Shown here piece by piece: positions 37,974-42,769 of a stretch of DNA of 64,000 nucleotides. Numbering within the stretch: position 1 is the stretch's first letter; each line of letters starts with the position of its first letter. A program made the position numbers and the translations under genes. Location: the NCBI GenBank assembly GCA_044892525.1, contig CM097886.1, forward strand, positions 91,884,001-91,948,000, in the 5' to 3' direction. Origin of the DNA: Schmidtea polychroa (Eukaryota). The notes beneath the pieces are model-generated. The model was given only the letters and a program-made list of their open reading frames with translations. It ran no database searches and was not told where the DNA came from.

Positions 37974-38133
37974 AAAGGGATATGACTGTATATAATTGTA
38001 AAAAGTAAGTATATCTTATGTATATAACAGTACTATATCTTCATATAAGCGCGGTATCAATATTATACAATAACGGGAATCATAAAATAAAATTAAATTT
38101 AGATAAGAGTTGAAAAGTGTATATAAATTAAGA

Positions 38134-38493
38134 ATGGAGCAAGGAAATAACGAAATGAACCACAACACAGTAACCGAAGAATTATGGAAGCAACAATGTG
38201 CCGTATTAGCACAATTAGTGTCTAATTTGCAAGAACAAGGATTGACGATGCAAAAGAACCTAATCGAGAGTATGAACAGAGGATTTAGTTATTTGAAGAT
38301 AATTGAAGACCAGAGGTTAAAAATCGAACAAATGCAAAGAGAAATAGAGAGGGTAACCCAATATAGCCGAAGACAGGAAATCGAATTGGACAGAATGATG
38401 GAGGAAGCAGAACAGACAGAAATAGAAGACTGGTCAGAATGGCTAATGAGTAGAGAGGAGGGCGGACACGAAGCCGACTCTTCCGAACCATAA
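38134..38493 (+). CDS. Short coiled-coil orphan protein with acidic tail
   Basis: First ATG at 38134. A-rich codon usage like the other element ORFs; heptad-like L/I/M pattern. Confidence 0.65.
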   Translation: MEQGNNEMNHNTVTEELWKQQCAVLAQLVSNLQEQGLTMQKNLIESMNRGFSYLKIIEDQRLKIEQMQREIERVTQYSRRQEIELDRMMEEAEQTEIEDWSEWLMSREEGGHEADSSEP

Positions 38494-38578
38494 ACCAAAC
38501 CTAGCTTAAAATGTAAATAATTGTAAATAAAATATCGAACCTGTATCGATAAGAACTATATGTATATATAATTATAGA

Positions 38579-39967
38579 ATGGATAAACGACAAAGAGAAG
38601 AGTTCAGAGAGATTGTCGAACAAGTCCGAAAATCTACAACGATCAGAATACACAAACATGTTATGTGCGGAATATGTGAAAAGTTGTTAAAGGAACCTCA
38701 CCAAACCCAATGTGGATGCAGATTATGTAAGGAATGCATCAGTGAAGCAATAAAGAATAGACCACAGTGGTGCCCGGTGTGTAAAGAGACATTAATATCG
38801 AGTTTAGAAGACACTAACGAGGATAAAGCCGCAGTGAAAGACATGTTAAACACCAATCTGGGATGTAAAAATAACCCATGTGAATGGAAAGGAGTGATAT
38901 GGAAAGTAGTGCAACATATGGGGGAATGTATGTACAGAATCAGCCAGTGTGAAAGGTGCCATAAAACCATTCGAGCAAGCGAAGAAAAAGAGCATCAAAG
39001 CCAGTGTGAAGATAGACTAGAAAGATGCAAACATTGTAGAGAACTAGATACGTGGAAAAATCTCACCAGCAAACATCACAATGTCCAAGAGGAAAAGGTA
39101 TGTGCAGAGTTCAGTGGGGAATTCCCGAACGGATGCGAGGAAGGGAGAATAATAAAAATAGCCCAACACCTAAAGGAATGTGAAAGGAAAAGAATGACAT
39201 GTGTACTCGGTAAATGGGGCTGTCAGAAACTACTACACCGAGGAGAGTTACCACATTATTTAGTAGAAAATGCTTCAACCCACGCAGAAATGTGGTCGAC
39301 TGCGTTACAAGAAAGTGAAGAGAAAGTAAAACAAATGGAGATAGAGATAACATCGTTGAAAGCGTTAGTCAAAGAACTACTAGAAGAAAGAGAAGCGTTC
39401 GAAGAAGCCCGAGCTAACATAAAGATGCAAATAAATCGTATAGAAATCAGTAATAATCAGGCCAAGGAGCTACATCGGAAAATACAGGAAATAAATCTAA
39501 ATGAGATAACCCCAACAGCACCTTATATATGGAAGATAACGGGAGTGAAAGAAAGAATACGGAAAGCCAAAACTGGGGAAGAGACAAGAATAACAAGTCC
39601 TGCATTCCATTCTTGGAAAAATGGGTACAAGATGAAAATGAGGATATATCCCAACGGAGATGGAGCCGGATTGAATACACATTTTTCGATATTTTTTCTA
39701 TTATGTAAAAGGGAATATGACGAAGTAATAGAATGGCCATTCCAGGCAAAAATCGATATCACAATGATGAATGACCAAAGCATCCACGAACAAAGCTTCA
39801 AAACAACGGGAACCCAGCTGTGTTACCGACGACCTACTGATGAGGAAGGAGCAGCATCAGGAGCCCCCACGTTCATCTTACAGCAGAAGGTGGAAGAGAT
39901 GACAAAAAACGACACAATATATATAAAAATGAGAGTGAGAAGGGAAGGGAAGGGTAGAACGGAGTAA
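38579..39967 (+). CDS. traf: Full-length intronless TRAF protein (RING, TRAF zinc fingers, coiled coil, MATH/TRAF-C)
   Basis: RING CGICEKLL...CGCRLCKEC...CPVC; fingers CKNNPCEWKG...HMGEC and CERC...HQSQC; MATH YIWKITG...SPAF...GYKMKMRIYPNGDG...THFSIFF...EWPF. Confidence 0.95.
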   Translation: MDKRQREEFREIVEQVRKSTTIRIHKHVMCGICEKLLKEPHQTQCGCRLCKECISEAIKNRPQWCPVCKETLISSLEDTNEDKAAVKDMLNTNLGCKNNPCEWKGVIWKVVQHMGECMYRISQCERCHKTIRASEEKEHQSQCEDRLERCKHCRELDTWKNLTSKHHNVQEEKVCAEFSGEFPNGCEEGRIIKIAQHLKECERKRMTCVLGKWGCQKLLHRGELPHYLVENASTHAEMWSTALQESEEKVKQMEIEITSLKALVKELLEEREAFEEARANIKMQINRIEISNNQAKELHRKIQEINLNEITPTAPYIWKITGVKERIRKAKTGEETRITSPAFHSWKNGYKMKMRIYPNGDGAGLNTHFSIFFLLCKREYDEVIEWPFQAKIDITMMNDQSIHEQSFKTTGTQLCYRRPTDEEGAASGAPTFILQQKVEEMTKNDTIYIKMRVRREGKGRTE

Positions 39968-40160
39968 CCCATCGAATAATGTTGTATATAATAACCTGTA
40001 TATATCGGCGTATATAACCAATAAAATATTATATAATAATAGTATGAAAAACCCTAAATACGAAAACCCAAAAATGATGCGAAAAATTTCCGAAGAACCA
40101 GTAACTAATGAATAAAAATTTTCCATAATAAAAAGATTAATCTATATCAATGATTTAGAA

Positions 40161-41216: not shown

Positions 41217-41386
41217 AGGTGAATAAAAAGATAAAAAACAAAAAAAATCGGGACGTATATCCCAAACAAAAAAATTAAAGTATCATAAAAGTATTCAAGG
41301 GATTGTAACCCAAACTATTAAATTTCATATAAATGTATATGTATAAGTCGCACTATAGCGCACCATTAACTGTACATATTATAGAT

Positions 41387-42088
41387 ATGAAAATCGAGGA
41401 AATGATAGAAATCACGAGTGACGTGGAAGAAGGAGAAATTGTAACAGAACCAACAGAAACACAAACGCTAGAAGCAGAGTTGCGAGCAGAGAAGTGTGAA
41501 AACGAGAGACTGGTAAACAAATACACAGAAGATCGAAAAATAATAAAGATACTAAAGAAAGAATGCAGAGTGCTAGGGGAAGTAAAAAGAGAAACAGAAG
41601 AGGAAAACGAATGGCTGCAAGAACAACGAAAACGAGGGAGAAATTGGGAAAAGATTGCGGAACAATTATGGCAAGAAAGGGCCAGTAGAAAGGCAGACGA
41701 AGTGATCACAGATTATTGGAAGACTGAGGCGCGAGAACGGCAAGCAACCATAGAGGAACTGGAGAAACAATTGCAAGAAAGTCAACAAGAAAGAGAAGGA
41801 ATGAAGAAGTGGATCCGCAAATATAGAGAGATAGAAGGAAAACATCAACAACAAAATTACCTGCAAGAAAACGAACAAGACTTCCTACAAATTGAGCTAA
41901 AAAGAAACCTGGAAAAGAAAAGGGAAGAGATTAGACGATTGGAAAAAGAAATTAGACATTTAAAGAGAGAAGCCCGTGAAAAGGACCGACAGTTAGCAAT
42001 GCTACCTGAGTTGAGATATAGGGTCATTAAGGCAGAGACCACCCTAATGAGAATCACCGAAAACGATCCCCAAAAGAAAGACGATTAA
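41387..42088 (+). CDS. Coiled-coil orphan protein (about 233 aa)
   Basis: ATG at 41387 directly follows a ttatag acceptor. E/K/R-rich heptads; no family recognised. Confidence 0.72.
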   Translation: MKIEEMIEITSDVEEGEIVTEPTETQTLEAELRAEKCENERLVNKYTEDRKIIKILKKECRVLGEVKRETEEENEWLQEQRKRGRNWEKIAEQLWQERASRKADEVITDYWKTEARERQATIEELEKQLQESQQEREGMKKWIRKYREIEGKHQQQNYLQENEQDFLQIELKRNLEKKREEIRRLEKEIRHLKREAREKDRQLAMLPELRYRVIKAETTLMRITENDPQKKDD

Positions 42089-42127
42089 CAAAAGAACGTC
42101 GACAATTGTAAATAAATTAAATGTTTG

Positions 42128-42769
42128 ATGTATAACAGTATAATGCGGTGGGGAGTGACAATCTCCTTGATAATATTGGCCAACAATCTGATGAGCGAGC
42201 TACAGAGTAATCCCCAAATAGATAGCCTCCGAGATCACCGAAGAAAGAACTCGAAAACCCAATCCGAATCACCTAAACCGATATGCCATACCTTGGTGAA
42301 GAGCAAAATCATAGACAACATCCGTTCAACCCGAACCTACATCGACAATATCCGAATAATGTGCCAAGGAAACCTCCTGTGTAGAAAAATAAATAAAGTG
42401 ATAGTAGAACAAATCCATCACCTGGATCAACTAGAAGTGCAAATACGACAGGAAAATTCCGAACCTGAAAAGATCGAGAAATCCCCAGAACAAAGCGACA
42501 CCCACTACCTTCTATATGTGGTGATCGCCGAAACAAGCCTACTATGTCTAATAACCTTCTTGGAAATCCTCGAATTCAAGAAAAAATGCCACCAACCGAA
42601 ATCCAAAGCCACCCAGCAAAATTCGGTCGAAATCTCCAACATTACTCAAAATACAAGTCCACTCAGATTAACCAACCAAGAATCTCCCAAACCATCAACC
42701 AGTCGTCCGGCCTACTACAACATCGAGCCTAAAATGTACCAACAACCCCAGTCAAAGTCCTCAGAGTAA
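42128..42769 (+). CDS. Putative type I membrane protein
   Basis: Signal-like MRWGVTISLIILANNL, TM-like YLLYVVIAETSLLCLITFL, S/P/T/Q-rich tail with a YYNI motif. Confidence 0.7.
   Translation: MYNSIMRWGVTISLIILANNLMSELQSNPQIDSLRDHRRKNSKTQSESPKPICHTLVKSKIIDNIRSTRTYIDNIRIMCQGNLLCRKINKVIVEQIHHLDQLEVQIRQENSEPEKIEKSPEQSDTHYLLYVVIAETSLLCLITFLEILEFKKKCHQPKSKATQQNSVEISNITQNTSPLRLTNQESPKPSTSRPAYYNIEPKMYQQPQSKSSE

Follow-up and report, generated by a model that had tools for sequence, protein, structure and literature searches.

In a 64,000-nt window of the Schmidtea polychroa genome (GenBank assembly GCA_044892525.1, contig CM097886.1, positions 91,884,001 to 91,948,000 of the forward strand; coordinates below count from the first nucleotide of this window), a giant Burro-like gypsy retroelement with long terminal repeats (LTRs) carries five open reading frames (ORFs) in a row at its 3' end. 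The reading that we tentatively prefer is that a short non-coding leader from the LTR is spliced in cis to one acceptor per cassette gene, and that each spacer serves as the 3' untranslated region (UTR) of the gene before it. The cassette (37974–43010) is the 3' accessory block of the 30.8-kb element, here called copy A; a second, diverged copy (copy B) lies further downstream. The anatomy of the region points to how one long RNA might be divided into messages of one gene each, by a mechanism that is as yet unproven.

Acceptor-like sites at the start codons

The cassette consists of the following features.

37974–38133, plus strand: spacer 1, 160 nt; three TGTATATA, donor-like GTAAGTA at 38005, AATAAA at 38086, AG at 38131–38132
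38134–38493, plus strand: charged ORF of 119 aa (ORF119), from the ORF list
38494–38578, plus strand: spacer 2, 85 nt; two TGTAAATA, one TGTATATA, AATAAA at 38526, AG at 38576–38577
38579–39967, plus strand: full-length TRAF-like protein of 462 aa (ORF462) with RING, zinc fingers, coiled coil and MATH domain; PF21355, expect value (E) 7.9e-26
39968–40160, plus strand: spacer 3, 193 nt; two TGTATATA, three AATAAA, six ATGs, AG at 40157–40158
40161–41216, plus strand: coiled-coil protein of 351 aa (ORF351) with a C-terminal YLLDEE motif, conserved in a homologue search
41217–41386, plus strand: spacer 4, 170 nt; AATAAA at 41222, two ATTAAA, TGTACATA at 41371, AG at 41383–41384
41387–42088, plus strand: highly charged ORF of 233 aa (ORF233; 51% E/K/R/Q), with a further in-frame ATG at 41333
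42089–42142, plus strand: spacer 5, 54 nt; TGTAAATA at 42107, AATAAA at 42111, AG at 42137–42138
42143–42769, plus strand: ORF of 208 aa (ORF208) with one hydrophobic segment and a further in-frame ATG at 42128
42770–43010, plus strand: last spacer; TGTATATA at 42843, AATAAA at 42904, a T-rich stretch, donor-like GTAAGTA at 42963

The initial annotation of this DNA had described an AG 1–4 nt before almost every start codon, and this is found in all eight contexts that it named (gaps of 2, 2, 1, 1, 2, 2, 4 and 2 nt). Its description of the spacers as short and AT-rich also holds, with 160, 85, 193, 170 and 54 nt measured for five of them and an AT content of 74–78%. For two ORFs it had used the second in-frame ATG, namely 41387 rather than 41333 and 42143 rather than 42128. 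When the five spacers are shuffled, the product of the rates at which an AG arises at the five cassette starts is 1.1e-4. For all seven accessory starts of copy A, which include an ORF inside the LTR and a RING-finger ORF upstream of gag, the value is 5.7e-5; it becomes 1.0e-3 after conditioning on a purine at -3, which all starts possess, and allowing two candidate ATGs for two ORFs. The stricter pattern WWYAG precedes five of the seven accessory starts, compared with two of 45 internal Met codons. No AG occurs within 4 nt of the ATGs of gag, env and pol, so the pattern is confined to the accessory ORFs. The AG sites before the RING ORF (57789) and the LTR ORF of copy B are kept while their letters have changed, and the RING ORF has a T-rich acceptor-like site 2 nt before its ATG.

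An acceptor profile ranks the cassette AGs, in order, 143, 7, 35, 4 and 13 among 449 AGs. Three are the best of their own spacer, one is second, and the first (38131) is seventh of nine. Between two and six ATGs, 14 in total, lie upstream of the AG in each spacer, which provides a reason for a junction placed right at the start codon.

These ATGs also bear on the possibility that one polycistronic RNA is translated by re-initiation, shunting or internal entry, with the AG being mere start context. The purine at -3 in all starts, the short spacers and the frequency of bare AG near ATGs in this element would suit such translation. It is nevertheless highly improbable: the AG excess survives conditioning on the purine at -3 (1e-3), the 14 upstream ATGs would hinder scanning, and motifs of 3' UTR type in each spacer (see below) point to separate ends.

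The predicted LTR promoter and its leader

The 5' LTR contains the following predicted signals.

16480–16515, plus strand: core promoter, with reverse CCAAT box GATTGG at 16480 and TATA-like ATATATA at 16506; the LTR of copy B (LTR B) has the same motifs at matching offsets
16530–16560, plus strand: leader exon 1, with an approximate start; donor D1, AG|GTAAGG (GT at 16561), closes it and is kept in LTR B (GT at 54010)
16561–16605, plus strand: mini-intron of 45 nt (50 nt in LTR B)
16606–16741, plus strand: leader exon 2, without ATG, ending at donor D2 (GTAAGG at 16742; GTAAGA at 54224 in LTR B)
22459–22879, plus strand: a pair of T-rich, acceptor-like sites in the gag 5' region, with predicted exon starts at 22477 and 22879; copy B has the same letters

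LTRs A and B are mostly too dissimilar to align, and against this background the spacing of the signals is conserved. In LTRs A and B, respectively, GATTGG lies at offsets 331 and 338, ATATATA at 357 and 364, AG|GTAAG at 410 and 419, and a second GTAAG at 593 and 635; between D1 and exon 2 both have a stretch of 45 or 50 nt that closes on a repeat of the same AG context. The predicted leader exons are free of ATG in both LTRs (chance about 0.10 each). The sole ATG in the leader region of LTR B falls within the predicted mini-intron, and the longest ATG-free run of LTR A (16351–16787) spans the leader. The CCAAT–TATA–AG|GT layout also occurs in an unrelated nested LTR.

Copy B keeps the T-rich acceptor-like sites of the gag 5' region and those that precede the LTR ORF and the RING ORF. 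Since two ORFs precede gag, some splicing of this kind is nearly required for the 5' part of the element.

Several other observations concern these regions. Very short introns are possible at 22810–22878, where two stretches run from GTAAGA to AG over about 34 and 27 nt and recur almost unchanged in copy B. In both LTRs the mini-intron closes with a second copy of the end of exon 1, in letters that differ between A and B (16538–16605; 53983–54059); the first copy thus has the form of an acceptor that runs straight into a donor (AG|GT). The first 20 or so bases of the LTR have an imperfect reverse complement about 550–630 nt downstream, just before D2 (16150–16173 with about 16700–16722 in A; 53590–53609 with about 54202–54221 in B). 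The two arms have changed in step between A and B, and the B copy ends in AACA. One possibility is that this pair records where a shorter, older LTR ended before it gained 3.4 kb; another is that the two arms pair with each other. The pairing is absent from the fold of the 3' copy.

Motifs in the spacers

Each spacer was said to have its own AATAAA, and all six do, a result reached in 2.25% of 2000 shuffles; the number of copies, by contrast, is 8 compared with 6.0 expected, and 236 of 1000 shuffles reach 8. The GTATATA also noted is enriched as claimed (8 compared with 0.8 expected), but is really part of a longer motif, TGTA[ACT]ATA. This occurs 11 times in the 903 nt of the six spacers, with 0.66 expected and 4 in the best of 1000 shuffles. 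It is present in each of the six (0 of 2000 shuffles) and absent from their minus strand, and the spacers hold 11 of the 15 plus-strand copies in the window. The motif is an exact match to the consensus of the Pumilio response element, UGUANAUA (PMC5758885), on the sense strand only and after stop codons; here it is predicted from the sequence, and GTATATAA can alternatively be a TATA box in this element family.

This alternative matters, because the nested LTR has GTATATAAG at its TATA position, which makes the TATA reading of the spacer motif a real rival. Under that reading, the GTATATAA motifs are TATA boxes of promoters within the spacers, or the cassette has a single promoter towards the end of the polyprotein region, whose transcripts would carry a leader up to the GTAAGTA at 38005 and be spliced from there to the five AGs. 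TATATAA is indeed in excess (8 copies, 2.0 expected), GTAAGTA at 38005 is a perfect donor match, and an internal promoter drives env in Oikopleura Tor3b/4b (PMC4402516). Internal promoters are all the same rather improbable here. The excess is tied to the preceding TG: TATATAA without a preceding G occurs twice (1.68 expected), whereas the non-TATA forms TGTA[AC]ATA occur four times (0.35 expected; 2 of 2000 shuffles). One copy of the motif follows the last ORF, none of the spacers has the LTR-type CCAAT motif, and five ATGs follow the last TATA-like motif in spacer 3. The distance between a TATA box and the start of transcription follows an established rule, and in spacers 1, 2 and 4 the nearest motif, 16–18 nt before the ATG, is too close. 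An exon ending at 38004 further predicts a contig start at 40159 and not the observed 40158 (see below). With the excess tied to TG rather than to TATA, and with one copy after the last ORF, the spacers look like 3' UTRs. The UGUA core also acts as an enhancer of polyadenylation.

GTAAGTA occurs in the first and last spacers (2 copies, 0.19 expected; 31 of 2000 shuffles), and these sites may gate the use of poly(A) signals or serve an internal leader. Lying 48 nt short of the 3' LTR, the copy at 42963 could be joined to the AG|GT at the end of leader exon 1.

The cassette genes

The TRAF-like protein and ORF351 are real conserved proteins. ORF462 matches the structures of TRAF3, TRAF1 and TRAF2 with E of about 1e-26, and its homologue P0001 starts and ends at matching places, which supports the ATG at 38579. 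ORF351 has five homologues (27–36% identity) that share the YLLDEE motif; among the three that were aligned, the two full-length ones end at the same place. A word-index protein search gave no relative of ORF351, and Atlas matches for ORF351 and ORF208 were uninformative. ORF208 is likely a single-pass membrane protein, judging by its hydrophobic segment. No family was found for ORF119 (searched against Pfam only, no match), ORF233 (ORF233/251 had no match in the word-index search) or ORF208. Relatives with DNA context were sought in viral contigs (7 candidates, none confirmed) and metagenome contigs (91 candidates, none confirmed).

It could be that the cassette is a leftover, or its pattern a by-product of base composition: captured ORFs would have brought their flanks with them, and some would no longer be expressed. 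Three of the five ORFs are without a homologue found (ORF119 in Pfam only), and copy A is damaged elsewhere. Among 2,682 variants, the seven listed in cassette ORFs (five at codon position 1, two at position 3) give no sign of purifying selection, although they are too few to show selection. Five open frames, homologues of the TRAF-like protein and of ORF351 with matching ends, and the same motif in all six spacers (0 of 2000 shuffles) make this very unlikely.

Folding of 42770–43650 gave no stable structure (z 0.19).

Comparison with assembled reads

Contigs of three presumed-RNA runs (X1, X6 and X7) and one DNA-like run (X2), four of the twelve runs listed, were placed on 27100–47000; predicted splice sites were written down before the comparison. 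The results refer to the 15 of 121 joints, 24 of 1,913 loose ends and 32 of 44,695 pieces that were listed. Among the eight X1 pieces listed, contig 5 begins on the G (40158) of the AG that precedes ORF351, for which the chance is about 0.6% by a hand estimate (7 distinct left ends, 18 of 19,901 places). Such a start is the merge point expected of a mixture of D2-spliced and unspliced RNA if the upstream sequence ends in G, and both leader exon 2 of copy A and the flatworm spliced leader do so. It is unlike the place predicted from exon 1, from the copy B exon or from an exon ending at 38004. Letters of the LTR leader or of a spliced leader were found in none of the 24 loose ends.

In the DNA run X2, contigs lack the middle part of spacers 3 and 4 or have other sequence there (40046–40153 in one contig, 41278–41329 in two), and resume before the AG–ATG.

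Proposed leader splicing and the possible role of a host spliced leader

In the proposed mechanism, transcription of the Burro-like element and of its five accessory genes, the cassette ORFs, would start at the CCAAT–TATA promoter of the 5' LTR. The resulting short, non-coding, two-exon leader would be spliced in cis from donor D2 (16742) to one of several 3' splice sites 1–4 nt before the start codons, so that each accessory gene has its own message from which the ATGs of the spacer are removed. The acceptors of the cassette are weaker than the 5' ones, a requirement if unspliced genomic RNA is to persist. Each spacer would double as the 3' UTR of the preceding gene, with UGUAHAUA motifs and a poly(A) hexamer, and messages would probably end gene by gene.

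The main rival is an operon. The gag-env-pol message would be cleaved and polyadenylated in spacer 1, a host spliced leader would be trans-spliced to the next AG, and this would be repeated at every spacer, giving five capped single-gene messages per polymerase pass. Trans-splicing occurs in planarians (PMC10899757), and spacers of 54–193 nt fit flatworm operons, given a median of 99 bp in S. mansoni (PMC12582326) and an intergenic peak near 100 bp in Macrostomum (PMC8629364). AATAAA or ATTAAA lies 23–68 nt before each cassette AG, long introns are able to act as outrons (PMC5832876), flatworm acceptors are often common to cis and trans splicing (PMC12582326), and Cer1 provides a gypsy element with a spliced-leader transcript (PMC3315495). 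The contig start at 40158 is equally compatible with a spliced leader that ends in G. On the other hand, flatworm spliced leaders terminate in AUG (PMC12582326), and none of the seven gaps between AG and ATG in copy A (1, 1, 2, 2, 2, 2 and 4 nt) is a multiple of three. This leaves the terminal AUG out of frame at all seven sites, and each ORF keeps its own ATG. A free cis donor lies upstream, and an LTR donor is reported to outcompete the spliced leader at a trans-splice acceptor in Echinococcus (PMC4558846). The enrichment of hexamers is not significant, and spliced-leader letters are missing from the loose ends listed. We regard the operon as doubtful, if by no means far-fetched. Its fuller version, in which a multi-gene operon is resolved by the host spliced leader and poly(A) cleavage in every spacer, all cargo (TRAF-like, membrane and coiled-coil) is under Pumilio control, and U1-type sites at 38005 and 42963 decide between cargo and genome, is unlikely. 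By analogy with the shared acceptors of flatworms, cis and spliced-leader routes may also both act.

A number of points weigh against splicing of the LTR leader. The read evidence consists of contigs only, from runs whose RNA status is a guess, and no joint from leader to cassette is present among the 15 of 121 joints listed from presumed-RNA and DNA contigs. A spliced leader ending in G, or simply a sequence variant, would account just as well for the contig start at 40158; this contig differs from the window at 38 of 425 letters. X1 contig 4 starts 13 nt upstream of the acceptor of the TRAF-like gene and is thus unspliced RNA or DNA. To reach the cassette, 21–25 kb away, D2 would have to bypass several poly(A) hexamers and no fewer than four acceptor-like sites that are stronger. 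The pyrimidine content before the cassette AGs is 0.35–0.53, below that of the 5' sites, and the acceptor profile was built from seven predicted acceptors of the 5' part rather than from proven host introns. The first cassette AG (38131) is an AAG of rank 143 of 449, outscored by six other AGs in spacer 1, and spacer 3 has one AG that scores above its cassette acceptor. The AG test is not overwhelming, because bare AGs near ATGs are frequent in this purine-rich element. Of its ATGs, 33 of 97 outside coding sequence and 120 of 358 within it have one at a distance of 0–4 nt, as have 24 of 45 Met codons inside the accessory ORFs. Finally, the AATAAA argument is weak.

The suggestion that one of two mechanisms, a cis-spliced leader or a spliced leader, makes monocistronic mRNAs from this cassette has the anatomy in its favour (spacer ATGs, promoter, ATG-free leader and donors), although no junction was seen among the contig joints listed. 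Taken on that anatomy, it is probable that one or the other is at work.

Architecture of the element

The remaining features of the element and its surroundings are as follows.

16150–46976, plus strand: whole element copy A, a Burro-like gypsy LTR retroelement of 30,827 bp, from its LTR pair, ends and domain order
16150–20117, plus strand: 5' LTR, 3,968 bp, TGTT...AACA, from LTR comparison
43011–46976, plus strand: 3' LTR, 3,966 bp, from LTR comparison
18810–19559, plus strand: ORF of 249 aa within the 5' LTR, downstream of the promoter, with AG 2 nt before its ATG, from the ORF list and comparison of copies A and B
20450–20935, plus strand: RING-finger ORF of 161 aa upstream of gag (PF13920, E 1.9e-11)
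23136–37973, plus strand: gag (retrotrans_gag, CCHC), env, pol (protease, PR; reverse transcriptase, RT; RNase H, RH; integrase, IN), ankyrin and membrane-type tail, from ORFs and Pfam
30278–31325, minus strand: nested solo-LTR-like insertion of 1,048 bp at the env–pol junction, with TGTT...AACA ends and duplication GCAG, from ends, duplication and depth
53590–64000, plus strand: copy B, with diverged LTR (to about 57446), RING ORF and gag start, from repeat comparison

Copy A is flanked by a 4-bp target duplication (TATC), its LTRs end in TGTT...AACA, and 3,960 of 3,966 aligned bases are identical between them. From 5' to 3', it contains the LTR-internal ORF, the RING ORF, gag, env, PR-RT-RH-IN, ankyrin, the membrane-type tail and the five-ORF cassette. 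The order of Pfam families in gag-pol is PF03732, PF00098, PF00077, PF00078, PF17917, PF17921 and PF00665; between gag and pol, env matches PF24664, a mononegavirus-like fusion glycoprotein (E 4.7e-72, 27832–30315). The polyprotein region is split into five ORF pieces, one break being the nested insertion, which is absent from other copies. Copy B ends at the edge of the window, short of its cassette.

The 249-aa LTR ORF has 66% identity to its counterpart in LTR B, with 146 of 259 changes at third codon positions; on this comparison it is under purifying selection. Its frame is broken in the 3' LTR. If the AATAAA after it (about 19690) is a poly(A) signal, the repeated R region would be about 3 kb. 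The RING ORF has 83% amino acid identity between copies A and B, with 56 of 88 changes at codon position 3.

The nested solo LTR belongs to another family. Its depth is about 15-fold above that of its surroundings in all four runs, and copies of the element without it exist as DNA. It resembles its host element in TGTT...AACA ends, a 4-bp duplication and the CCAAT–TATA–AG|GT layout, and differs in having a quarter of the LTR length. This T/C-rich kilobase between env and pol was considered as an intron and rejected, a joint across it being present in the DNA run X2 as well; the ends, the duplication, the 15-fold depth and a loose end of run X7 at its border further rule out an intron.

In the polyprotein, the tail (36150–37973) has two hydrophobic segments with a weak fibronectin-III-like stretch between them (E 0.2), as in a type I membrane protein. 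An R-I-N/x-M-M motif recurs at the domain borders of the polyprotein pieces (23136–36325) and likely marks protease sites. A primer-binding-site-like stretch 7 nt past the LTR (20125–20143 and 57454–57470) is kept in both copies; it resembles what we take to be the complement of the 3' end of tRNA-Pro. No clear polypurine tract precedes the 3' LTR. Between the RING ORF and gag lies a 74-nt tandem repeat with about 4 units in copy A (21493–21837) and about 10 in copy B (58844–59590), and GTAAG occurs in each second unit. The AT-rich host flanks contain inverted-repeat elements and a 384-bp dispersed repeat (47295–47499, 50139–50332; 11667–12444; 8005–8388, 52990–53372). No tRNA or Rfam match was found in the 64-kb window.

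Comparison with known systems

Burro elements (GYPSM1) are giant gypsy-like LTR retrotransposons of planarians (Grohme et al. 2018; Jurka 2007; reviewed in PMC6431247). Going by its sequence organisation, copy A belongs to this already known kind, a label that the initial annotation missed; the likeness is one to the published description rather than one of sequence identity to Burro1–4. To our knowledge, Burro elements are the largest LTR retroelements, and they carry apoptosis and ubiquitin cargo. Their RNA rises upon piwi knock-down (PMC8532177). As described in the review, they share with copy A a length above 30 kb, kilobase-long LTRs, a CCHC gag, a mononegavirus-like env between gag and pol, PR-RT-RH-IN, ankyrin and TRAF/MATH cargo, tandem repeats and accessory ORFs (PMC6431247). 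The TRAF-like gene is free-standing and downstream of pol here, whereas it lies within the polyprotein of Burro1 and in an upstream ORF of the D. tigrina element; also unlike Burro are the RING ORF alone before gag, the five-gene 3' cassette and the LTR-internal ORF (PMC6431247). Burro has one polyprotein of about 5,000 aa with ubiquitin-like, BCL2-like and BIR motifs (PMC6431247). In copy A, a ubiquitin motif falls below the cut-off (E 0.014), and no BIR match was found in 14 ORFs at E 0.01. Bcl-2 A1 ranks top for a model of the gag tail with E 0.64 at a pLDDT (predicted local distance difference test) of 45; fold and sequence searches of solved structures with this low-confidence single-sequence model gave no match at threshold. 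The portion of the review available contains nothing on how Burro accessory ORFs are expressed (PMC6431247). Neither their expression nor Pumilio-type motifs in them were found in a literature search that included the accessible parts of PMC8532177, PMC11410931 and PMC13238120, with Grohme et al. 2018 and later work on Burro1 cargo, either of which may already cover transcripts, outside its reach. In this respect copy A defines exact places, with a single leader donor, five candidate acceptors and the motif in all six spacers. A link between cargo expression and a stem-cell RNA regulator is suggested by the Pumilio-type motifs.

Like flatworm spliced-leader operons, the cassette has same-strand genes 50–200 nt apart and a poly(A) hexamer followed by AG (PMC12582326, PMC8629364). 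Those operons, as far as described there, consist of host genes, mostly in pairs; here, five genes sit in a mobile element with a cis donor, and the leader AUG is out of frame. Should the host spliced leader act here, a mobile element would possess a true operon of several genes. A precedent for a gypsy element in a trans-splicing host is Cer1 of C. elegans, whose full-length RNA requires the skipping of consensus splice sites and whose spliced RNA occurs with and without SL1 (PMC3315495). It differs in having one spliced product, from gag-derived exons, and no cassette of separate genes (PMC3315495). The Tor elements of Oikopleura are likewise env-bearing LTR elements. Tor3a expresses a downstream ORF through a splice from the LTR, and Tor3b/4b through an internal promoter; the Tor elements differ in being small and having a single downstream gene (PMC4402516).

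The hallmarks of complex retroviruses are present at sequence level, namely an LTR promoter, a non-coding leader and a major donor, together with a putative 3' splice site before all seven accessory ORFs, weak at the first cassette gene. Walleye dermal sarcoma virus (WDSV), a complex retrovirus of 12.7 kb, similarly has accessory ORFs before gag and after the structural genes, and its subgenomic, multiply spliced accessory messages have been shown (PMC3185748). Unlike WDSV, copy A is a gypsy element of 31 kb with seven accessory ORFs, in which we infer splicing from the sequence. Retroviral messages commonly end in the 3' LTR; unlike this shared end, the spacers of copy A look like separate 3' ends. 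Adenovirus late units offer another comparison for transcript complexity. If the leader is spliced in cis over 21–25 kb to messages with gene-by-gene 3' ends, a gypsy element would match the transcript complexity of complex retroviruses or of the adenovirus late units.

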